A program made the position numbers and the translations under genes. From Halobacteriovoraceae bacterium (GTDB lineage Bacteria > Bdellovibrionota > Bacteriovoracia > Bacteriovoracales > Bacteriovoracaceae), in contig CAVRCF010000003.1 of assembly GCA_963719505.1 (NCBI GenBank), positions 160,001 through 224,000 of the forward strand: a DNA stretch of 64,000 nt, in the 5' to 3' direction. Positions 20,101 through 40,088 of the stretch are shown here, piece after piece. Every line of letters starts with the position of its first letter. The stretch's first letter is position 1. The notes beneath the pieces are model-generated. The model saw only the letters and a list, made by a program, of their open reading frames with translations. It was not told the origin of the DNA and ran no database searches.

Positions 20101-22561
20101 ATGATGCAAATACTTATTGTGGGACTTATTGTTATGGGCTTTTTTTCAATTACTGGAGACGACTTGAAGACCAATTCAGCTGTACAGAAAGATTCAAAGA
20201 TCGAAGCAAAAATTGAAGAAATTGTCGGTGAGATGACTCTCGAGGAAAAGGTTGCCCAAATAATTCAGGCAGAAATTAAGTTCATCTCCCCAAAAGATAT
20301 TGAGAGCTATCCGCTGGGTTCAATCTTAAATGGTGGAGGCTCTTTTCCAAATAATGACAAGCAAGCAAAAGCGAGTGACTGGGTTTCATTAGCTGAATCA
20401 TTTCATAGTGAGTCTTTAAAGCACGGCATGAAGATTCCGATCATTTGGGGAACAGATGCCGTGCACGGACATAATAATGTCCACGGCGCTACTTTATTTC
20501 CTCACAATATTGGTCTTGGTGCAGCTCAAAACCCAAAACTGATTGAACAGATTGGGCGTGCGACAGCGAAGGAAGTTCTCGCAACGGGAATTGATTGGAT
20601 TTTTGCACCAACTGTAGCTGTGGTGAGAAACGATAGATGGGGGCGAACTTATGAAAGTTACTCAGAGGATCCTAAGATTGTTAAGTCTTATGCCGCTAGC
20701 ATGGTATACGGTCTTCAGGGTAGAGGAGATGAAATTCTTAGTCGAGATCATGTCATTGCCACGGCCAAACATTTTATTGGCGATGGTGGAACTCAAGACG
20801 GAGTGGATCAGGGTGACACAATTGTCAGTGAGCAAGAGCTACTAAGTCTTCATGCTCAAGGTTATATAAGTGCTATCAATGCTGGAGTTCAAACGGTAAT
20901 GGCCAGCTTTAATAGTTGGAACGGTTTAAAGATGCATGGGCATAAATATCTTTTAACGGATGTCTTAAAAGGTAAAATGAAATTTGATGGCTTCGTTATC
21001 GGTGACTGGAATGGACATGGGCAAGTAAAAGGGTGTCGAAATGATTCTTGTGCTGAGGCCATTAACGCTGGAGTTGATATGCTTATGGCACCAGAAGATT
21101 GGAAGGCTCTCTATCACAATACACTTGCTCAAGTTAAAAATGGAGAAATCCCTCAGACGCGTTTAAATGATGCAGTTACTCGCATTCTTAGAGTCAAAAT
21201 GCGTTATGGTGCTTTTGAGCTTGAGGCACCTTCAAAAAGAAGGCATGCAGGAAAATCTAAAATTATTGGATCAGTTGAGCATAAAGCCCTAGCAAGACAA
21301 GCCGTTAGAGAGTCTTTAGTTCTTTTAAAAAATAAAAATAATATCCTTCCTCTTTCAGCGAATACCAATGTTTTAGTCGCTGGCAGTGGAGCTCATAATA
21401 TAGGTAAACAAAGTGGCGGCTGGAGTCTTAGTTGGCAAGGAACGGGAAATACAAACGATGATTTTCCTGAGGCCACTTCAGTTTATGATGGATTTAAAAA
21501 GACTCTTCTAAAAGGCGGAGGCAAAGCGGCTTTAAGTGTTAATGGAGAGTTTGAAGATAAGCCTGATGTTGCTGTGGTCGTTTTTGGTGAAGAGCCATAT
21601 GCCGAAGGACAAGGGGATATTGAGAATCTTTACTATGGAAGCCGATACCAAGGAGATCTCAAACTTCTTAAAAAGCTAAGGTCACAAAACATTCCGATTA
21701 TAAGCATTTTTTTAACGGGGAGACCACTTTGGATTAACCCTGAATTAAATGCCAGTGATGCTTTCGTTGTAGCCTGGCTTCCGGGAACGGAAGCAAATGG
21801 GATTGCGGATGTCCTGATTAAAGATGCGAATGGAAATATAGATTTTGATTTTAAAGGTAAGCTCTCTTTCTCGTGGCCAAGTCACGCCAATCAAGTCTCA
21901 ATAAATATTGGAGATAAAGATTATCAGCCGCTATTTCCCTATGGCTTTGGCTTAACCTATGCCGACAAAGATAAGTTAGGAGATAACCTTTCTGAAAACC
22001 CTTTTCCCAACAATGATGGCCCAGGTGACTTAAAAAACTCTTGAAATATTCGATAAACGTCCCAGTAATCCTTTTAAAAATTTTCTAGCAGATTCAATCA
22101 ATCAAAAAAAAGAACTACCAGCGGGTATTGGCACTAGTGCAGATCAGTCGGTTAGGGTTATTGCCATTGATAAAGAACTTCAAGAAGATGCTCGCCAAAT
22201 TTCTTTTCTGGGTTCAAAAGAGAAGTCCTACTTCTTTGAATCCTCTTACACTTTGGACCTTTCTAAATACCTTAAAACAAATGGATCACTCTCTTTTGAT
22301 ATAAGACAAGATGTCAAAGCATCCAAAGAAATTTATTTAAAAATTGAACAGACAAAGATTAAATTTAGCGAAAAGTATAATCAACTCGGAAACGGAAAAT
22401 GGACGACAATTGAAATTCCCTTAGATTGTTTTGTGTCCGAAGGTTTAGACTTAGCTTCAGTGACTAGGGCTTTTGAGGTCAGTAGCAAGGGCTCGGTAAC
22501 TTTCTCCCTTGCTAATTTAAAGCTTAATCAGAAAGCAATCAGCGGCAGTTGTCTTCGGTAA
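20101..22561 (+). CDS. GH3 exo-1,3/1,4-beta-glucanase (ExoP-like), frameshifted at about 22035
   Basis: GTDAVHGH, RWGRTYES, AKHFIGDGG, GDWNG; removing one A from A6 at 22032-22037 fuses ORFs 20101-22044 and 22253-22561 through DKELQEDAR. Confidence 0.85.
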
Positions 22562-22761
22562 AGCTTTAGCAGCTTAATGACTTTAAAATTTACGCCTCAA
22601 AGCTAGATTGCCAATAAATTAGGTAGGAAATAATTGAAAAAATGTAAATTCTTACCTTTTTACACTAATCTAGAGCTAATTATTTTAGCTACTTAGCTCT
22701 TTAGATATCGTAAGTATCAATTTGTCTTAGACAATTAGCTGTTGTCTGCTATCATTATATT

Positions 22762-22944
22762 ATGAAAAATTATAAATTTAGTCTTCCTGAAAAAATCAGC
22801 TTCGAGGACTTGGCCCAAGAGATTGTGCCAAACTACGATGAATTATCAACCGAAACTCAAGAGAACACTTTGAGTGCATTTGCAGCTTATGGCTGCTTTG
22901 GTTCTCCTTACTTTGACATATCATTTTGTGGGGAGTCTTCTTGA
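22762..22944 (+). CDS. Putative RiPP precursor peptide
   Basis: 60 aa: acidic leader with FxxPxxI, core AYGCFGSPYFDISFCGESS; stop overlaps the RRE start (TTGA); extended -10 TGcTATCAT upstream. Confidence 0.7.
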   Translation: MKNYKFSLPEKISFEDLAQEIVPNYDELSTETQENTLSAFAAYGCFGSPYFDISFCGESS

Positions 22945-23210
22945 GACTCAAGTCAAATATTATTATTAAAAGATATAATGACGAAAGCTGCTACTTGATT
23001 GATTTAGAAAGTGAAGAAGAAAATTTTTATAAATGTGAGGATGTAACATCGCTGCTGGTAAATTATATCAATGATAAGGATACATTTGATAAAGAAGACC
23101 TCATTAATATTTTAAAGTCTGTTTATCGTGACGTAAAGAGTGACCAAATTGAAAATGATGTGACAGAGTTTATCAATTACATGAAAGAGCAGAATTTTGT
23201 TGCTGAATAA
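22941..23210 (+). CDS. PqqD family / RiPP recognition element protein
   Basis: Three strands then helices ending DQIENDVTEFINYMKEQNFV; TTG start after GGGAG. Confidence 0.85.
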   Translation: MRLKSNIIIKRYNDESCYLIDLESEEENFYKCEDVTSLLVNYINDKDTFDKEDLINILKSVYRDVKSDQIENDVTEFINYMKEQNFVAE

Positions 23211-24321
23211 ATGCACGAAAGCTTTGATTGCGATTAGTATCTCCAAAGTTTGCTGACTTAATCGCATTTAGTGAAATCTCATCAAGTTTACTCGTTTCCA
23301 TCTGTTTTAATTCCTCAAAAATTAAAATCCAATCTTCAGATTCCATATCAACTAAAAATCCATTGATGCCATGAGTGATTTGTTCCTCATGACCCGAGTT
23401 ATTCTTATGACATATACATATCGCTCCAAGGCTTAAAGCTTCTTGAAGCGCCAATCCAAAAGGTTCATAGATTGAAGGAAAAAGTATAAATCTTGAAGAT
23501 AAGATGTCTCTTTCAAGCTGGCTTTGACTATTGGTCCAGTTTAGATTTGTTATATTTTTTTGAGCGAGAAAAGCTTCACCTTCTGATGTTAGGAGGTTGA
23601 TATCTAAGCCACGAATAGTGAGGCCCGTTTTAGACCAGTCATTATTGAGGATAAAGTGAAACCCTTTTTGTGGGTGAACGCGAGCAAAAGTATAAATATC
23701 ATACTTAAACTTTCTTTGTGAGTATTCACTAAGATCTTTCTTCTCAGCTGCACCTGGAAGAGGGATGTGAAATATAGTTTTATTTTCTATTTGATCTTTA
23801 TAGTACTTTTTTAAATGTTCGGATGTGATTTTTGAATTCGTTACATAGGCGCCACTTACCTTTATCCAGCTATTTTCAAACCTTAGAAAGGAAAAACTCA
23901 TAAGATCAATCATGCTGGTAATGGCATTTTTAAAGAAAACGCCATCAAATTTTTGAAGCTTAGATGTCTTAAGTATTGAATCATGAAGGGGCTTACCCAG
24001 AATATGAGTGTCATAAACAGTGGGAATTTTGATGAAGTCGATATAAGCCAAGGTCATATAATCGGCAATTTTGAAACTAAATTTTCTGTGGCCCAGTTGT
24101 GTCTTTAGGGTTGCCTGATACTTTGCAATGACTTCCTCTGTAAATGTATTATTGAATTCATCCATCTGTACATGCATTAAATTTTTATTAGTTTTGATTT
24201 TATCAGGTGAAAAAATAACAAAGAAAACATCATCAAACTCCTCGGAGTACCTCATTGTCCACTGTGCAATTCTTCTCATTCCTCCATTGTTAATAACACA
24301 GCTAAAGAGAGCTTGAGTCAT
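23173..24321 (-). CDS. Glycosyltransferase family 4
   Basis: ARVHPQKG; FPSIYEPFGLALQEA; NGFLVD. Confidence 0.88.
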   Translation of the reverse strand: MTQALFSCVINNGGMRRIAQWTMRYSEEFDDVFFVIFSPDKIKTNKNLMHVQMDEFNNTFTEEVIAKYQATLKTQLGHRKFSFKIADYMTLAYIDFIKIPTVYDTHILGKPLHDSILKTSKLQKFDGVFFKNAITSMIDLMSFSFLRFENSWIKVSGAYVTNSKITSEHLKKYYKDQIENKTIFHIPLPGAAEKKDLSEYSQRKFKYDIYTFARVHPQKGFHFILNNDWSKTGLTIRGLDINLLTSEGEAFLAQKNITNLNWTNSQSQLERDILSSRFILFPSIYEPFGLALQEALSLGAICICHKNNSGHEEQITHGINGFLVDMESEDWILIFEELKQMETSKLDEISLNAIKSANFGDTNRNQSFRAFIQQQNSALSCN

Positions 24322-25718
24322 AGGTACCTCTGCATATAGTTGAATATGGTTTTGAAATTTTTAATAGCTTCATCTACATCAAAACCTTTAGAAGTAGGGT
24401 AGAGAATGACCTCTAATTTATTTAAGAGATCGACTTTGTTTGCCTTGATGTCATCCTGTGAGGTTGAAAAAGTGTAGACTGTTCCATCTATTTCTGGAAG
24501 ATAGAAATGATCAACAAAAAAATAGTCAGCATAGTGTTCTTGGACATCTTTTGATATTAAAGACATTTTCTTCTTTAATGGAAGAAGCTCACTTTCTTTA
24601 TATGAATCAAAATGAGAGATGGGCCTAAAGGATTCTGAGTCAATGCCTCTAATCATATCTTCAATGAAAGAATTCATTTTGAAATCCTCATTCCATATTG
24701 AGTTATAGACATGTTGAGTCATAAGACATATCAACCTTAGATCGTGTGCCCAACTTGAGAAAAAATTGATATCTCTGTCGGTCTCTAGATCCATAAGCTT
24801 AAAGAGTTGGCCTCTGATATTATCTAGAGGAAGTCCCTTGATAAAAAGTTTAATATATTGAGGTGCACATTCAGGCTTTTTTGTGAAATCAATGGATTCA
24901 GTGTCTATAAAACGGCCATCAATCAATAAGTTATCGTAGCTTATTGACTTGTGAACGATTCCTTTTTTGAAAGCATTAATATAATGATGAAATAAAGTTT
25001 TTAGTATTTCTGATGGGGGAGAGTTAAATTTATTTTTAATGAAGTTTTGCGCTTTGATCTTATCTTCTTCACTGAGAAGGCAAGGGTGTAATTGGGCTAA
25101 GCGATATGTTTTGGCATCTCTTACTTGAAGAGTATTATGCATTTGATTAAAAGTTTTTTCTTTGTATAAGAATGATCCTAAAATCTCCAGTGAACCAAGA
25201 TTTGATCTCTGATTTACAACGATAGAGGAGATAATCGAGTTTAAGCAGTCTCTGGCCAAATAACCGCCCCAGCGGTGGTGGAAGTCTGGAGTTATCGCCA
25301 AAGAGTTTTTTCCGCAACCCTTCAATTGGGTATCATATAGTAAAACATGGCGAGAAGAGCCTATGGATTGATAATCAGGAGCAAAAAATCTTTCAGTGTT
25401 CAATGTCAAGTCGGCTTCTTTGTAAAAATTCTCGCTAGATTCTTTACTTTCAAAGCCACCTGAGTTGAAGGCCTTTGTAGCAAGACCAAATTGTGTCAAA
25501 TCTGTTTTTGTTTTATCAAAGATCATATGTTCACAGGCTTCTTGAACATCTTTAACATGCCATGATTTAAGTTGATGCGGGTAACTAGCTTTTAGCTGCT
25601 TAATATACTCAGCATTCATTTCCAATCTTTCTAAGCAGTCAGGGTTGATAACCCATGGCATAACTTCTTTTTCTTTCAAATAAACAGATGTATACTTTCT
25701 AAGATCTAAGTCTTTCAT
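24318..25718 (-). CDS. SelO/YdiU-like (MchC-like) kinase-fold ATP-dependent enzyme
   Basis: GSSR…QLKGCGKN, GIVHKSISYDNLLIDGRFIDTES parallel SelO QLKGAG and GFVHGVMNTDN…IDYGP. Confidence 0.7.
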   Translation of the reverse strand: MKDLDLRKYTSVYLKEKEVMPWVINPDCLERLEMNAEYIKQLKASYPHQLKSWHVKDVQEACEHMIFDKTKTDLTQFGLATKAFNSGGFESKESSENFYKEADLTLNTERFFAPDYQSIGSSRHVLLYDTQLKGCGKNSLAITPDFHHRWGGYLARDCLNSIISSIVVNQRSNLGSLEILGSFLYKEKTFNQMHNTLQVRDAKTYRLAQLHPCLLSEEDKIKAQNFIKNKFNSPPSEILKTLFHHYINAFKKGIVHKSISYDNLLIDGRFIDTESIDFTKKPECAPQYIKLFIKGLPLDNIRGQLFKLMDLETDRDINFFSSWAHDLRLICLMTQHVYNSIWNEDFKMNSFIEDMIRGIDSESFRPISHFDSYKESELLPLKKKMSLISKDVQEHYADYFFVDHFYLPEIDGTVYTFSTSQDDIKANKVDLLNKLEVILYPTSKGFDVDEAIKNFKTIFNYMQRYL

Positions 25719-25746
25719 CTAAAAAGCTTACAGGTAGATCTGGGAT

Positions 25747-26871
25747 ATGAAAATGACAAAGTATTTGTGGATTCAGCTTGAAGGAAAGGACCATTGGAAA
25801 AGTTCGAGAGTCCTTGTTGAATCATGGAAACGTGCCTACCAGAGTCGAGCCGACATCGATTTTCAGGAAGTCTCTACAATTAATAACAAAGAGGAAATCT
25901 TAGCTTGGTTTAAAAATATTAACTTCAATCCAGACGTAATTGTGGTGGCCGATCCAAGAGTCAATATTGTGCTTCTCAAGTCAATCTTTAAAGAAAAATT
26001 CTTTTTTATCCATATTCTTGGAGACCCTATTAGGAAACTTTTAGATATCCATCAACAGGCACTTTTTGTAGATAAAACAAACCTCATTGTTGGAAGCTTA
26101 GCTAATTATAAAATATTATCAAAAATCGTTTCTCAAAATATAATTAAATATTTCCCTTTTAATCCTCCAGTTGAGACCCAAGCCCATTTTTCGAAGAAAA
26201 GAAAAAAATTTCTTTATATGGGGCGCATCGCTTATTTTAAGAATGTCCATCATCTCATAAACCTTTTTGATGAATTTTGTAAGTTAAACTCTGAGCAGAT
26301 TGAACTCACTATCGCTGGTTGTCCAAGTAACGTTAATCTTCCAGCCGAGCCAATGGGACATTATATAGGATATCCCGCTGAAATTTTTTTAAATGCACTC
26401 GAAAAAGAAAAAAACTCCAATCTTACTGTAAACTATCTTGGAGGTTTGGATGAAGACTCTCTAAAGAAAGAGGTGGAAAAGGCTGACGTCCTGGTGAGTT
26501 TGTCCACAGCTCCAGAAGAAGATTTTGGATTAAGTGTTCTCGAGGCTCTCGGCTTCGGTAAACCTTGTATTTTGACTCGCTGGGGAGGGTATCGTGAATT
26601 TGAAGGTCTCGAGGGAGTTAGCTTCGTCCCCGTCGACAAAGTTGATAATGGTCTTGTTCTCGATAAGAGGCGCTTCTTTGAGCTTATAAAAAAAGGATGC
26701 CTATTGAGTAAATTGACACTTATCGAATGGCAAAATAAAAGGGATGAAGTCCTGATGTCGACTAGCCTTAAACCAAGAGACGAAGAACTTAAGAAGAACG
26801 ATGAATTTAAAGTGAAATTTGGAGATTTTTATAATGCCTACGAGCGATATGTATCCCCTTACTGGGATTAG
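25747..26871 (+). CDS. Glycosyltransferase family 4
   Basis: YMGRIAYFKN; EEDFGLSVLEALGFGKPCILTRWGGYRE. Confidence 0.85.
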   Translation: MKMTKYLWIQLEGKDHWKSSRVLVESWKRAYQSRADIDFQEVSTINNKEEILAWFKNINFNPDVIVVADPRVNIVLLKSIFKEKFFFIHILGDPIRKLLDIHQQALFVDKTNLIVGSLANYKILSKIVSQNIIKYFPFNPPVETQAHFSKKRKKFLYMGRIAYFKNVHHLINLFDEFCKLNSEQIELTIAGCPSNVNLPAEPMGHYIGYPAEIFLNALEKEKNSNLTVNYLGGLDEDSLKKEVEKADVLVSLSTAPEEDFGLSVLEALGFGKPCILTRWGGYREFEGLEGVSFVPVDKVDNGLVLDKRRFFELIKKGCLLSKLTLIEWQNKRDEVLMSTSLKPRDEELKKNDEFKVKFGDFYNAYERYVSPYWD

Positions 26872-27481
26872 AGAAGACGAAAATTGGATCGTGACTCATA
26901 AGAAAAGATTGGATTTATCCTTTTCTACAAAAGAGAAACCTGTTTTCTTGAGTGCGAGTCTTCCTGTCATTATTCAATCAGATCAATTGCCACTTGCCTG
27001 GTTAAAAAGTGATCCAGGATTTAAAATCTTGCTCAGAGATAAAGCTGCTAACATTGAGAGAGATTGGATCTACCATCCAATGACCTCTCATAATAAAAGA
27101 AAATACCAACTACGACAAAAGCCAATTAAAGAGGTGATGCGAGTGTTAGTTGTTCTCGATTCAAACTCCTCACAATCTCAGCTCGCCGCATTTATTGAAG
27201 AGTCAAAAAAAAGATGGGACAAAGCTGATGTTTTATTTATTGGGTTTAGGCATTTATTACCGAAACTCAATACAGTATTAGTTGACCCTTACTTGTTTTG
27301 TTTTCAGTCCTCTTGGAGTCCAGATTTGATCATCTTTGATAATGGAGAAATCGACTTCTCTCCTTTCGTCCTGCACGGTCTTCATCTTGGGGGCAAGCTC
27401 GCTGATACTGCTCTGAGGGATGGTCAAAAGCCTAGTGAAGTTATAACAAGGTGGTATGGAGACTGGGAGCTTTATGATTAA
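26819..27481 (+). CDS. Hypothetical protein (RiPP-cluster associated)
   Basis: Overlaps both neighbours; no motif recognised. Confidence 0.6.
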   Translation: MEIFIMPTSDMYPLTGIREDENWIVTHKKRLDLSFSTKEKPVFLSASLPVIIQSDQLPLAWLKSDPGFKILLRDKAANIERDWIYHPMTSHNKRKYQLRQKPIKEVMRVLVVLDSNSSQSQLAAFIEESKKRWDKADVLFIGFRHLLPKLNTVLVDPYLFCFQSSWSPDLIIFDNGEIDFSPFVLHGLHLGGKLADTALRDGQKPSEVITRWYGDWELYD

Positions 27482-28073
27482 TGATATTATTATCGTCGAC
27501 GATTTTTTACCTAGTGAACTCCTTAAAACTTTTATGGATAAGAATAGGGAGTACAGCGCTATAGATAAGGTTTATTACGCAGGAGAGACTAACTTTCCAA
27601 CGTCTGGCGAGGTAAAAAAGCTTGGTCAATTTCTAAAAGAAAAAAAGATATTTGAATTTAAAGACTTTGAAATGAGGTTACGCAGAACATCTCCTCAGAA
27701 TAGTAACGATTTTAAAAGCTTTATTCACGTTGATACTTTCTGTGAATTTTCAGGAATTATTTATTTAAACTCTTCTCAAGATCGTAAAGATCCAACGGGA
27801 ACATATTTTTGGCAACATAAAGTTACAGGAAGAAAAATGTCACGTTTAGATAGCTTAAAAAATCAATTTATTGATAATGCTATTGTCGAGTCGAAGTCAA
27901 AAGATTTCTCGAGCTGGGATTGTTGGAAAAAAATTGAGTTCGTGAGTAATAGGGCCATCTTTTTTCCAGCAAACTTTTTTCATTCACCAGTTCCACCGGA
28001 TATTTTCTCAGGAGATAGACTTACTATAGATTTGTTTTTTAACAAGTTGAGTGACTTTAAGTTTCGAGAGTAA
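27474..28073 (+). CDS. 2OG-Fe(II) oxygenase (DUF6445-like)
   Basis: IIIVDDFL, HVD…GIIYLN…GTYFW.HK.TG, NRAIFF…FHS, RLT. Confidence 0.8.
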   Translation: MINDIIIVDDFLPSELLKTFMDKNREYSAIDKVYYAGETNFPTSGEVKKLGQFLKEKKIFEFKDFEMRLRRTSPQNSNDFKSFIHVDTFCEFSGIIYLNSSQDRKDPTGTYFWQHKVTGRKMSRLDSLKNQFIDNAIVESKSKDFSSWDCWKKIEFVSNRAIFFPANFFHSPVPPDIFSGDRLTIDLFFNKLSDFKFRE

Positions 28074-28136
28074 GGATAATCTAACGAGGTGCCGGTCTTG
28101 CATCTTAACTTGTTAACTGTATGCCTTAGGACTCTT

Positions 28137-29018
28137 TCATGAGCTTTCTTCTTTGTGATAAACTTCTTTGTTGGTACAAACCTTTATCTCATCAGCTCCA
28201 AAACACTCATTTAATGTTTCCATAAAGTTGTCGAGCTTATCAAATTGAATTTTTGCAGTTTCTTGGTGGGAATTTACAACTAATGTAAGGTCTTTTTGTT
28301 GCGAGTATCGCTCCTTGATTTCATCAATTAGACTGGATATAGTACTTTTCTTCCAGTAATCAATTGCACCCAAATTGTTTGGAATTTCCATGATTTTTCC
28401 AGAGTTAGTTTCCAGTAGGAAAGGAGAAGTTGTGCATTCAACACCATCCCATAGAAGATTTAGGTAACGCTGCAGGTTGTCACCTTCCCAGCCACTTCCG
28501 TCGAGGAGACTTGGATTCGTAGCAGAACTTTCAACCTTTAGTCCACAATCAATAAGCGACTCACAGACTCGTTCATCAGCCATCCAGCCACCGGCGCGAA
28601 AAGATGTTATTCCTTTGAAGCCGCGAGACTTTAGTTTTTTTAATGAGTAGTCGATAAGCTCTCTTATTTCGGATTTGTCATAAGACAATAGCATGACCTC
28701 TTGACCTTTCATTTCTCCTTGATTGTAGTCACCGTCAATACTAAAACATGGACCTTGACGGGGTGTTACTCCTGCAGCATGCACAAGGTGATGAGGTGTA
28801 TGCAGGTGAAGTCCTATCTCATCATCTTGAGCTAAAACCGAGTCTATCTTCTCATCGACTTCTTCAGATGAAAAGCTAGACTTCGTATAGTAGGCGGGGT
28901 TCATAAAGTGTACCACAGGGACTTGCCAGCGCTTTTTAAATTGCCGTATTCGTCCAAGGTTTTCCTCTCTGAGTGATGTTCCTTCCCAATCGACACTGAG
29001 TATTAGGCTAATGCTCAT
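28137..29018 (-). CDS. Polysaccharide deacetylase-like (NodB fold) protein
   Basis: LSVDWEG, EIGLHLH, SFRAGGW, MEIP motifs. Confidence 0.75.
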   Translation of the reverse strand: MSISLILSVDWEGTSLREENLGRIRQFKKRWQVPVVHFMNPAYYTKSSFSSEEVDEKIDSVLAQDDEIGLHLHTPHHLVHAAGVTPRQGPCFSIDGDYNQGEMKGQEVMLLSYDKSEIRELIDYSLKKLKSRGFKGITSFRAGGWMADERVCESLIDCGLKVESSATNPSLLDGSGWEGDNLQRYLNLLWDGVECTTSPFLLETNSGKIMEIPNNLGAIDYWKKSTISSLIDEIKERYSQQKDLTLVVNSHQETAKIQFDKLDNFMETLNECFGADEIKVCTNKEVYHKEESS

Positions 29019-29470
29019 TGATATCTCTCCACACTTTAGAGCTATTTACCTATCATGGGGGATATATGAACTTATTTAAAGCAGGAGGATTAAGACAGAA
29101 AAATTTGCGTTATTTCTTTAAGGGACTTAAATCACTGATGTTTAAAAAAGAGTTTAATCAACTCTCAGATGATACAAGGTTAAATATTCGAAAATCTTTC
29201 CTGGCCGTCTTTTCTTGGGTCATAATGATCGTTCTTTCAGTCATTATTGTGAGCTATTTTTCAACAGGTGAAGATTCCACTCATTCAGTTTTCTTTAATG
29301 TTGTGTCTGCCTTAACCAATTGCGGTTTAAGTCTTGGTACTCTAGATCAAACATTACCACTTGTTTCAAAGTTTATTTTTATCTTCTTAATGTCCGTAGG
29401 AAGGATTAATATTTCAGTGATGATTATGGTCTTTTTTCTCTTCGTCTCTAAAGTCAGTAAGATTAAATAG
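29018..29470 (+). pseudogene. TrkH/KtrB C-terminal fragment
   Basis: FNVVSALTNCGLSLG…KFIFIFLMSVGR matches only the last pore repeat. Confidence 0.6.
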
Positions 29471-29529
29471 TCGAGTTCTTATTTGGAACTGAAATCCATC
29501 TTTCATAGGTGAAGAAGTATTTTTCTGTC

Positions 29530-32466: not shown

Positions 32467-33798
32467 TTATACAACTAAGTCACTATCGTTCTCTTCTTCT
32501 CTTGATTCATCATGCGTACTTAGTGCAATTCCAAAGGTTAGAATTCCAACTCTACCCATTAACATTAAGATAACAATAAGAACTTTAGCAGTGAAACCAA
32601 AGTCTGCAGTGATACCCATTGATATCCCAACAGTTCCAAGAGCTGATGCTGCCTCGAATAAGATTTTTAAAAATTCAATTTCAGGGTGGAGTGCCGTTAG
32701 TAAAAACAAAAAGACAAATAAAACAAAAATATAATACGTAAAAGATGCTATTGCTGTGTGAAGTCTTCTCTCTGGTATTTCTCTTTTGCGAAAACGAATC
32801 GAGTTTCTCCCTTTTAGTATACTTCTAACAAGGCCTATAAGAGCTGATAAGGTCGTTAGCTTTAACCCCCCACCAGTACCAGATGGAGAGGCTCCAAAAA
32901 TCATTGCAAAAGTTAAAATGACTAAGGTCGATTTAGAAAGAGTCCCAATATCCAATGTGTTAAAACCTACAGTGGTTGATGCAGTCATCACTTGAAATAA
33001 AGAACTCAAAAAACGATTGAATGGTGAAAGGCTTTGTATGCCGGGCTCAGAAACAAATATTAGAAACGTTCCGATCACGGTTATCCATAAAGTCATCGAT
33101 AGAATGACTTTACTTGTAAATAAGAGACTTTTTCTTTGACCTCTAAAATTTTGCATAATGTCTGCAAAAACAATAAAGCCTATTGCTCCAAGATAGCTTA
33201 ATAGACTTAAAATAAAATTGACGCTTACAGAGTCTCTATAAGTTACAAATCCGTTTGGAAATAAACTAAAACCAGCTGTACAAAATGCAGAGATACTGTG
33301 AAAAATACTAAGCCATAGTGAATTATCTAAACCTTCTGAAGAAAATACAAAGTATAGCCAACACGCACCAATGAGCTCACTTACAAAAGTAAAAAGGATG
33401 ACATTTTTAAGAAAGTCACCAATTTCAAATCCCTCTGGTAGTGAGAAAGCAGACTTTGAGATTGCCTCTCTCGTTCGGGTGAGTCTAGATCCAATTGACA
33501 GAGCTACAAAAGAGCTAAAAGTCATATATCCAAGCCCTCCAGCTTGAAAGAGCAGGAGAACGATCAATTGTCCCCAAAAATTATAGCTAGAAGCTACATC
33601 AATAGTAACCAAACCAGTTGTTGAAACTGCAGAAGTTGCGATAAACAAATTATCAATACCATTAACTTCAGTATTTTGAAAAAATGGGGTGGAGAGAGCA
33701 ATCCAACCAATGATTATATAAGAAAGGTAACCAATAAAGATTGCTTTCGCTGGCTGACTTTTCACGAAAAGATAAATAATTGCAGAAATGCGATTCAT
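32467..33798 (-). CDS. KtrB/TrkH potassium uptake protein
   Basis: TSAVSTTGL, SAFCTAGF, GASPSGTGGGLK, SALGTVG. Confidence 0.9.
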   Translation of the reverse strand: MNRISAIIYLFVKSQPAKAIFIGYLSYIIIGWIALSTPFFQNTEVNGIDNLFIATSAVSTTGLVTIDVASSYNFWGQLIVLLLFQAGGLGYMTFSSFVALSIGSRLTRTREAISKSAFSLPEGFEIGDFLKNVILFTFVSELIGACWLYFVFSSEGLDNSLWLSIFHSISAFCTAGFSLFPNGFVTYRDSVSVNFILSLLSYLGAIGFIVFADIMQNFRGQRKSLLFTSKVILSMTLWITVIGTFLIFVSEPGIQSLSPFNRFLSSLFQVMTASTTVGFNTLDIGTLSKSTLVILTFAMIFGASPSGTGGGLKLTTLSALIGLVRSILKGRNSIRFRKREIPERRLHTAIASFTYYIFVLFVFLFLLTALHPEIEFLKILFEAASALGTVGISMGITADFGFTAKVLIVILMLMGRVGILTFGIALSTHDESREEENDSDLVV

Positions 33799-38849: not shown

Positions 38850-40088
38850 TGGAAGTAACACGAATTGCGTTTACAACACCTGACTAAATATTGCCGGTAA
38901 TATTTGAGTCATGCGTTCTCAGTTAAAATTGTAGTAACCACAAAACAATTTTTAACAAAAGGAAAACACATGACTCAACAACAGTATCTCATTAATCGTA
39001 AGCTCAACATAGTTGAATTTGCAGACACTTTAAAAAATATTACAAAAGCATGCAAAAGACTTGGTGTAAGCCGACAGCATTACTACGATATTAAAACTGC
39101 CATACAAGAAGACGGACTTGAAGGCCTTATAGAAAAGTCTAGAAGAGGTCCAAGAGTTGGAAACAGGTGCGCTCCAGAAGTCGAGAAAGCTGTTCTAGAC
39201 TATTCTTTACAGTATCCTACCCATGGACAAGTTCGAGTTTCGAATGAGCTTAAAAGAAAAAGCAATATTGCTATTAGCGCTGGCGGAATTCGCTCAATCT
39301 GGCTCAGGCATGACTTACAAGTAAAACATCTAAGGTTAAAACGTCTAGAGAAATGGTCGGCTCAGGAGAATAATATTTTAACTGAGTCTCAAGTCCAAGC
39401 ACTCGAAGAGAGAAAGCAAGAGAAAGAAGCTCATGGCGAAGTAGAGACTCATCACTCTGGATTTCTATTCGCCCAAGATACTTACTACGTTGGCTACATT
39501 AAAGGTGTTGGAAAAATTTATCAGCAAACAGGAATTGATACCTATTCTAATGTGGGGTTTGCAAAACTCTATCTGGATAAAAGTCAAACTGTTGCGGCAG
39601 ATTTTTTAAACAGCAAAGTACTTCCATTCTTCGACGAACACAGGATCTCAGTTCTTAGGATTTTGACAGACAATGGACGAGAATATTGTGGTCACAAAGA
39701 TGCGCATCACTATCAATTATTCATGCACTTGAATGATATAGAACATAGTCGAACAAAAGTAAGACATCCTCAAACGAATGGATCAGTAGAGAAATTAAAT
39801 CAAATCATCCAAAATGAATTTTATAGTGTTGCATTTAGAAAGAAGCTTTATACGAGCCTAGAAGGACTGCAGGATGATCTTGATTTTTACATGAAGGATT
39901 ACAACTTCGACAGAACAAATCAAGGAAAGAGGTGCAAAGGAAGAACTCCTTATGAAACATTTTCAGAAGGAGTAAAATTGTATAAAGAAATGGTTTTTGA
40001 CACCGAGGTAGAAAGTAGCGAAATAGATTTACAATAGTTTTATATTTTGACTGAGAGCGTTTTGTAAACGCAAGTCGTGACTACTGCA
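38850..40088 (+). mobile_element. IS481-family insertion sequence
   Basis: 27-bp imperfect terminal IRs (…CACGAATTGCGTTTACAA / TTGTAAACGCAAGTCGTG…); CATAATT duplicated at 38843-38849 and 40089-40095. Confidence 0.9.
38970..40037 (+). CDS. IS481-family transposase
   Basis: QDTYYVG, LTDNGREYCG, HPQTNG.VE DDE motifs; ATG 38970 after AGGA. Confidence 0.92.
   Translation: MTQQQYLINRKLNIVEFADTLKNITKACKRLGVSRQHYYDIKTAIQEDGLEGLIEKSRRGPRVGNRCAPEVEKAVLDYSLQYPTHGQVRVSNELKRKSNIAISAGGIRSIWLRHDLQVKHLRLKRLEKWSAQENNILTESQVQALEERKQEKEAHGEVETHHSGFLFAQDTYYVGYIKGVGKIYQQTGIDTYSNVGFAKLYLDKSQTVAADFLNSKVLPFFDEHRISVLRILTDNGREYCGHKDAHHYQLFMHLNDIEHSRTKVRHPQTNGSVEKLNQIIQNEFYSVAFRKKLYTSLEGLQDDLDFYMKDYNFDRTNQGKRCKGRTPYETFSEGVKLYKEMVFDTEVESSEIDLQ

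Follow-up and report, generated by a model that had tools for sequence, protein, structure and literature searches.

SelO-type enzymes are known as protein AMPylases, and the MchC branch of their superfamily is, to our knowledge, known only from siderophore-microcins. Nolan and Walsh are said to have described in 2008 that the attachment step at the C terminus of the microcin is ATP dependent. According to PMC7680869, the C-terminal carboxylate of the siderophore-microcins receives a moiety that bears a sugar, an attachment in which MceI and MceJ are involved. MchC proteins are treated as a distant SELO subfamily by Dudkiewicz et al. 2012 (PMC3281104); the kinship of MchC with SelO, which an earlier note on the DNA analyzed here had put forward, is thus in print. 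The window that we analyzed is the whole stretch of 64,000 nucleotides (nt) spanning positions 160,001 to 224,000 (forward strand) of contig CAVRCF010000003.1 in the Halobacteriovoraceae bacterium assembly GCA_963719505.1. It contains, at positions 22762-28073, a cassette of seven genes in which an MchC-like enzyme accompanies a small peptide gene, a stand-alone recognition element of the PqqD type, and two GT4 glycosyltransferases. We consider it rather probable that this cassette encodes an undescribed glycopeptide pathway of the kind that yields ribosomally made peptides with post-translational modifications (RiPPs), dependent on its RiPP recognition element (RRE) and built around an enzyme of the MchC/SelO type whose chemistry we infer.

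As in the class IIb microcins of the MchC/MceJ type (MccH47, MccM, MccE492), the enzyme gene of the cassette lies beside a small peptide gene and glycosyltransferase genes, and hhalign (83-99.5%) assigns its product to their branch of the SelO superfamily. The Salmonella MchC locus, a true class IIb microcin cluster, encodes a glycosyltransferase, an MchD-type acyltransferase, HlyD, and a peptidase-ABC exporter. In both of the gammaproteobacterial plasmid loci examined (2/2), MchC-type genes adjoin glycosyltransferases and small peptide genes, and an MchD/MceI acyltransferase partner is present. In contrast, Pfam scans of the seven cassette proteins and 21 flanking open reading frames (ORFs; 10-42 kb) detected no HlyC-type acyltransferase, HlyD, peptidase-ABC exporter, or siderophore genes; the window cassette has a PqqD-type RRE instead, and its hosts are Bdellovibrionota rather than Gammaproteobacteria. 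None of the hallmarks of a class IIb siderophore-microcin (a Ser-terminal, Gly/Ser-rich microcin, a siderophore glycosyltransferase/esterase, and an exporter) was found in or beside the cassette. The other of the two plasmid loci, from Vibrio alginolyticus (L044; NZ_CP099958.1, 69172-77293), is a predicted MchC-type bacteriocin cluster unlike the enterobacterial ones. Its genes for an MchD-type acyltransferase and an MchC-like SelO-family protein are accompanied by those for a GT2, a Gly-rich peptide of 95 amino acids (aa), a radical SAM enzyme, HlyD, and a peptidase-ABC exporter.

With pyrroloquinoline quinone (PQQ) and the lasso peptides the cassette shares a discrete PqqD-fold protein beside a short precursor. 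In the window, this protein is translationally coupled to a precursor with a conserved leader and a variable core, and its partners are an MchC/SelO-type enzyme and GT4s rather than a radical SAM enzyme, a lasso cyclase/peptidase, or a YcaO protein. The same Pfam scans of the seven proteins and 21 flanking ORFs found none of the radical SAM, YcaO, LanB/C/M, or lasso-cyclase families. The combination put forward in the earlier note, in which a precursor and an RRE meet a SelO/MchC-like enzyme and two GT4s without a classical RiPP core enzyme, was therefore borne out by Pfam scans, fold, and profiles. Glycocins use GT2 SunS-type S/O-glycosyltransferases and are not known to involve an RRE or a kinase-fold enzyme. 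These and other glycosylated RiPPs are ribosomal peptides with dedicated glycosyltransferases and often Cys pairs; the cassette differs from the glycocins in its pair of GT4s, its RRE, and its MchC-like enzyme.

A precursor gene paired with a recognition element

The small ORF at 22762..22944 (plus strand), whose 60-aa translation matches no Pfam family, is a real gene under purifying selection. Set against its counterpart in a relative with 87-90% identical enzymes, the gene shows 25 nt differences in 183, with 22 synonymous and 2 non-synonymous codon changes, and the 200 nt upstream of it are only 41.5% identical. Its conservation extends further: a profile of six precursors found relatives in 14 clusters of a 5.8-billion-cluster protein collection.

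In an alignment of 16 precursors, the N-terminal 40 residues align well and the cores vary in length and sequence. P9 never varies, and at least 90% of the sequences keep Y4, T36, and Y50; the conserved leader comprises Y4, P9, and a downstream TL.a[FYW][AG], and the variable core region in the window reads GCFGSPYFDISFCGESS. This conserved leader joined to a variable core is thus the pattern of a RiPP precursor. Within the core, the conserved Tyr50 usually stands inside [PN]-Y-[FN], and E-[S/T/N] occurs in the last three residues of 14/16 precursors. The last residue itself is not conserved, being S (3), T (5), F (3), I (2), V, M, or G; the label "Ser-Ser-terminal" given to the peptide in the earlier note was consequently too narrow, as only 3/16 end in Ser. 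The precursors also lack the Gly/Ser-rich look of the MchC/MceJ microcins. Two Cys, along with several Ser/Thr, are present in 14/16 cores, and the 2 remaining precursors have no Cys, so that the disulfide bridge envisaged earlier is not universal.

The TGA stop of the precursor gene overlaps the TTG start of the PqqD gene at 22941 (TTGA); this coupling, the 60-aa translation, and all seven ORFs were seen as described before. The RRE gene (22941..23210, plus strand) encodes 89 aa scoring 30.9 bits on Pfam PqqD (cut-off, 23.4), and the homologues in L035 and L009 also exceed that cut-off. The homologues begin at matching residues (MKLRPS...), and because their N termini match the TTG start, we set the limits of the gene at 22941-23210; a longer ORF from 22926 was ruled out by the same starts. 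The RRE is tightly coupled to the precursor in six relatives, and the two genes are coupled or abutting in every lineage. Binding between the two products is weakly supported by a complex model with a score of 0.41 (best control, 0.12), in which the runs agree in at least 75% of contacts and the partner has a predicted local distance difference test score (pLDDT) of 56. The mark used for such models is reached by 58/80 solved complexes and 2/110 mismatches, and at scores of 0.60 or below by just 7/80 solved complexes and by both mismatches. Since RRE-leader complexes have already been solved, the pass may reflect likeness.

Two related observations concern other loci. At L009:865-1237 (genome G003), the start of a PqqD gene (38.6 bits) is overlapped by a 36-aa ORF whose leader is similar (KFTPPEIEEVD...LGVYASDS), and the PqqD gene adjoins a 608-aa protein weakly similar to the 466-aa enzyme of the window, plus a 646-aa GT2; this locus resembles a version of the system with a shorter core. 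RRE-precursor fusions were suspected in ORFs of 130-134 aa that adjoin distant homologues of the enzyme (L006:7646-8038 and L008:5324-5728), and the idea found no support: hhalign gave 0.2-0.5% to the RRE profile in a weak comparison of single sequences with a shallow profile.

Enzyme, precursor, and RRE occur together in 7/7 lineages that offer a full-length enzyme and enough flanking sequence, all of them Bdellovibrionota, and the conserved neighborhood for which the earlier note suggested a search is thereby established. These lineages are the window, the 87-90% identical relative (L013/14/16), G002 (L006), L012/L018, G077 (L035), G302 (L036), and G323 (L034); L010 and L017 were left out of the count as contigs too short to tell. 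Both GT4 genes are present at most of these loci. The enzyme is sparse, occurring in 4/61 genomes of relatives with a single-protein query and, with the enzyme profile at an E value of 1e-5 or lower, in 10 of 401 genomes of the phylum, that of the window (G000) included; the matches belong to Halobacteriovoraceae, Oligoflexia, and Bdellovibrio. Between the window and the 87-90% relative, exactly the seven cassette genes match, and 0/18 flanking window genes (10 upstream, 8 downstream) do so. As exactly seven genes are common and the flanks differ, we take 22762-28073 as the true limits of a portable unit. For 8 of the 18 flanking genes, no match was found in the other loci searched.

The MchC-like enzyme

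The gene at 24318..25718 (minus strand) encodes a 466-aa protein without a Pfam or NCBIfam match, and its "SelO-like" label had for this reason been unverified; fold and profile now confirm it. An AlphaFold2 model (pLDDT 81.7, predicted template-modeling score 0.84) returned YdiU/SelO as the Foldseek top match at a probability of 1.00, with low TM-scores (about 0.3). VIA-align gave Z values of 16.2-16.8 to YdiU and Pseudomonas syringae SelO over 296-318 residues, covering the whole length at a root-mean-square deviation of 4.7-6.7; the next best match was SbnC (Z 10.4), and ordinary kinases reached a Z of at most 8.8. As modeled, the enzyme has the SelO/YdiU fold. A Protein Data Bank sequence search with the 466-aa protein produced chance-level kinase matches only (E values of at least 0.29) and was set aside.

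Profile comparison places the enzyme nearer to MchC than to canonical SelO. By hhalign, the family profile reached 98.2% with the Cellvibrio "MchC protein," 83.3% with the Salmonella plasmid MchC, 96.8% with a Vibrio homologue, and 99.5% (E 2.6e-22, residues 100-282) with a 26-sequence alignment of the MchC clade that includes a member from a true class IIb microcin cluster; the comparison of 24318-25718 with both SelO and MchC, suggested in the earlier note, thus came out positive for SelO on fold and for MchC on profile. The family comprises 9 clusters by word-seeded search, and its profile gathers 295 representatives at an E value of 0.001 or lower, 57 of them at 1e-30 or lower. Pfam SelO is matched by 4 of the 50 distant profile matches that were scanned (above the cut-off by 3), and one distant match clusters with the Cellvibrio japonicus "MchC protein."

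SELO proteins conserve the equivalents of Lys72, Asn171, and Asp184 and have the HRD Asp replaced, as set out in section 8 of PMC3281104. In the window enzyme, mapped by motif and hhalign rather than by superposed coordinates, the SELO-defining residues are present, with K133 as the beta-3 Lys, N263 as the equivalent of Asn171, and D272 as the metal Asp. Throughout the family, the HRD motif has lost its Asp (H-K/R-S), and the 466-aa protein shows IDTE in place of the D[Y/F]G of SELO. Invariant positions include G120-H124, K133, G134, G136, N138, R200, R206, N263, and D272, and the motifs GSSRH, KGxGxN, and HxWGG are invariant as well. Like SelO/YdiU (PF02696), then, the enzyme combines the whole-length fold with the retained Lys, Asn, and metal Asp and a replaced HRD Asp; unlike them, it is found in a peptide-modification cassette and not in a housekeeping position. 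With its nucleotide and metal residues intact, the protein thus has the look of an active MchC-branch enzyme, outside the strict Pfam SelO family, and it is likely the class-defining, ATP-using enzyme of the cassette.

A genome-wide PF02696 search found two other genes and not the 466-aa enzyme. The same genome carries a separate canonical SelO at G000:C3:388550-390367 (L042:8550-10367; 324 bits on PF02696). Another, distant member of the SelO family, with 605 aa, is encoded on G000:C5 (L040:1495-2898; 29 bits) among housekeeping-looking neighbors, and no small ORF or RRE was seen beside its gene. Elsewhere on the latter contig (G000:C5:637257-637920), the enzyme profile picks out two stop-riddled stretches (E 8.9e-10 and 2.5e-9) that look like a decayed second copy of the enzyme; single-sequence and precursor/RRE searches of the 15 kb around them found nothing. 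On one metagenome contig of the close relative (L016:8001-9402), the enzyme gene is split into overlapping ORFs of 282 and 191 aa, which we read as a frameshift or sequencing error; the gene is intact in L013 and L014.

Proposed chemistry and competing explanations

The remaining four genes encode candidate tailoring and helper proteins. GT4a (23173..24321, minus strand, 382 aa) and GT4b (25747..26871, plus strand, 374 aa) score 51.3 and 69.6 bits on Pfam Glycos_transf_1 (cut-off, 26.4). Through ATGA, the gene for GT4a is coupled in translation to the MchC/SelO-like gene upstream of it, and the gene for GT4b diverges from the latter, with 28 nt separating their start codons. Orthologues of GT4a were found at 6 other loci and those of GT4b at 7. 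No cassette protein scores above an NCBIfam cut-off; the best NCBIfam matches of GT4a lie far under it, the top one being the protein O-glycosyltransferase SdgA (E 6e-12).

The next gene (26819..27481, plus strand), which overlaps both of its neighbors, encodes a conserved protein of about 210-220 aa with the motifs YPLTG and DPGFKILLR. It matches no Pfam, NCBIfam, or PADLOC family and gave no usable match in the ESM Atlas. It has only 9 relatives among the 5.8 billion clusters, and its AlphaFold2 model is poor (pLDDT 54.3). It was found in six loci (the window, L013-16, L006, L012, L035, and L010) and was not detected in L036 or L034. We considered it as an MchD/MceI-type partner and rejected this, as hhalign against MchD gave 0.5%; the MceIJ-like enzyme pair to which the earlier note had appealed is accordingly missing its second member.

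The last gene (27456..28073, plus strand) encodes a 205-aa protein resembling 2-oxoglutarate-Fe(II) (2OG) oxygenases of the DUF6445 type, with 23.4 bits on DUF6445 (cut-off, 24), an E value of 0.18 on 2OG-FeII_Oxy_3, and an HxD...H triad (H91, D93, H176) invariant in 4/4 homologues. It was found only in the window type, L010, and the variant L038; it is absent from the G002 cassette, and none was seen in the examined part of L012. It is an accessory gene of the cassette and not the core component that the earlier note had assumed. A third accessory family (L036:8360-8914, L035:8701-9201, and L008:3675-4307) was not counted as an oxygenase, its JmjC match being faint (E 0.18).

In the pathway that we propose, the 60-aa product would be the substrate, its leader (Y4...P9...TL.a[FYW][AG]) would be bound by the stand-alone RRE, and the RRE would present the variable C-terminal core to the enzymes. 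By analogy with MceIJ/MchCD, the MchC-like enzyme would use ATP on this core and activate the peptide by adenylyl transfer. Its likeliest target would be the C-terminal carboxylate after the E-[S/T/N] tail, which would then be joined to a sugar hydroxyl. The GT4s would install and extend that sugar, either on Tyr50 or on a peptide Ser/Thr, or supply it as a pre-built attached glycan. The DUF6445 oxygenase might add an optional hydroxyl, and the 220-aa protein would serve as a conserved helper. The chemistry that we prefer is one in which the C-terminal carboxylate is activated and then esterified to a sugar, and the variable last residue is compatible with it; being drawn by analogy, it is nevertheless a tentative choice, and we regard it as doubtful when taken by itself.

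Our caution about esterification is due mainly to the absence of an MchD partner: Pfam detected no MchD/MceI HlyC-type acyltransferase among the seven cassette proteins, and the MceIJ analogy therefore may not carry over. Several further points weigh against the pathway as proposed. The enzyme misses the curated score of Pfam SelO (PF02696), and its family profile reached just 2.2% by hhalign with this genome's canonical SelO. The glycosyltransferases are GT4s, unlike the kinds annotated beside MchC, and their acceptor and donor are not inferable from sequence. The E-[S/T/N] tail is missing in 2/16 precursors, no peptidase or exporter was found in the window cassette or its 21 flanking ORFs by Pfam, and the support that the complex model lends to RRE-precursor binding is weak.

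Nearly as likely as C-terminal esterification, although improbable in its own right, is a SelO-like chemistry in which the same cassette AMPylates or phosphorylates a side-chain hydroxyl, most likely that of Tyr50, and the GT4s add sugars to other hydroxyls or to the nucleotide-linked product. The SelO/YdiU fold of the enzyme and the Pfam name of the SelO family, "Protein adenylyltransferase SelO," argue for this chemistry, as do the lack of an MchD-type partner and the conservation of Tyr50, but not of the last residue, in at least 90% of the 16 precursors. However, the enzyme sequence is far nearer to MchC (99.5%) than to canonical SelO (2.2%), the conserved E-[S/T/N] tail would be left unexplained, and no AMPylated RiPP was found in the literature searched, that is, outside subscription journals.

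Two other routes seem very unlikely. The kinase-fold enzyme could activate Ser/Thr for elimination, with Cys then adding to the dehydro-residues to form thioether rings in a lanthipeptide-like manner. Two Cys and several Ser/Thr in 14/16 cores would suit this route, and the class III lanthipeptide enzyme SalKC does appear among the Foldseek matches, at rank 22, far down the list. Yet Pfam identified no lyase or cyclase family in the cassette, Cys is absent from two precursors, the enzyme has another residue in place of the HRD Asp of true kinases, and the two conserved GT4s would have no explanation. Equally improbable is a peptide-derived cofactor or small molecule made in the manner of PQQ or mycofactocin, of which a Tyr-containing piece would be kept and then glycosylated. 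Mycofactocin is glycosylated, and a PqqD-type chaperone, one near-invariant Tyr, and glycosyltransferases are all at hand here; on the other side, Pfam showed no radical SAM enzyme in the cassette and 21 flanking ORFs, the cores vary widely between lineages, unlike those of cofactor precursors, and the cassette is patchy (10/401 genomes of the phylum).

Least credible is a glycan, lipopolysaccharide (LPS), or capsule locus with the small ORF and PqqD-like gene as bystanders: GT4s are common in polysaccharide loci, weak NCBIfam matches include LPS and exopolysaccharide transferases, and ABC-2 type transporters occur in variant loci, but precursor and RRE accompany the enzyme in 7/7 lineages, both lie within the exact seven-gene unit common to a relative with differing flanks, the small ORF is under purifying selection, and Pfam scans found no Wzx/Wzy, sugar-nucleotide, or lipid-carrier genes in the window cassette. 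A reading as a defense system was also discarded, since PADLOC gave only a chance-level AbiEii match on the RRE (E 0.0025).

Surroundings, variant loci, and significance

A consensus scan placed a promoter-like site (TAGACA, 16 nt, TG-TATCAT) at 22728..22755 on the plus strand. Its -10 element ends 7 nt 5' of the precursor ATG, no Shine-Dalgarno-like run is visible before that ATG, and with the site so close to the start codon, the precursor mRNA may be leaderless. The site is weak on its own, since the scan, made by consensus only, gave 22 sites in the region versus 19.8 expected. Directly 5' of the precursor start, the block CTGTTRTCTGYTA (window 22735-22761) is common to the relative (L016, upstream of 10958). 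No RNA family was detected by Rfam within 21500-29500.

The genes upstream of the cassette encode ExbB, ExbD, TonB, a TonB-dependent receptor, and a GH3. We rejected this TonB/ExbBD/receptor operon as part of a Trojan-horse system because no flanking window gene (0/18) is kept beside the cassette in the close relative. The GH3 (window 20101-22561) appears split, with catalytic domains at 20101-22044 and, in another frame, an Exop_C fragment at 22253-22561 that begins at profile position 61 of 155; a frameshifted pseudogene or a mistake in the assembly could account for this. Downstream, a 150-aa ORF at 29018-29470 matches the end of TrkH only (profile positions 404-491 of 502) and is probably what remains of a gene; 3 kb away, the opposite strand encodes a full-length TrkH (32467-33798). 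An insertion sequence-type transposase with helix-turn-helix and rve integrase core domains is encoded at 38904-40037.

Distant homologues of the enzyme (about 430-610 aa) adjoin GT2/GT4, JmjC/2OG oxygenases, ABC-2 transporters, and PqqD-like or small ORFs, and the theme thus appears wider than this seven-gene cassette. Variant cassettes with such homologues were seen at L008:3675-8100 (G035), L006:5103-8038 (G002), L038 (G107), and L034 (G323). Their neighbors include JmjC/2OG oxygenases, GT2/GT4, ABC-2 transporter pairs, and a carbamoyltransferase, and they also encode ORFs of 90-134 aa with Gly/Pro/Cys-rich tails.

Our search of the literature outside subscription journals and supplements turned up neither an RRE-linked SelO/MchC-type enzyme nor this cassette, and the words "kinase," "SelO," and "Bdellovibrio" do not occur in a 2025 survey of RREs (PMC12710340). 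That the cassette represents the first RiPP class defined by an RRE-guided member of the SelO/MchC nucleotidyl-transferase superfamily strikes us as a claim with slightly less than an even chance of holding. In its boldest form, the enzyme would adenylate the C-terminal carboxylate and ester it to a sugar placed by the GT4s on Tyr50 of the same peptide, and the product would be a sugar-bridged macrocycle from predatory bacteria. The product may serve its predatory host as an antibacterial or signaling peptide.

If the proposed pathway is true, it would be a second independent family, one in which an RRE replaces the acyltransferase partner, and the fold would have been recruited repeatedly for the tailoring of ribosomal peptides. 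Seven genes without a siderophore would also offer a simpler system in which to work out the function of MchC-type enzymes. The Bdellovibrionota are predatory bacteria with a little-known secondary metabolism, and the leader motif together with the MchC-like profile would provide a search handle for an unexplored family of glycopeptides in this phylum.

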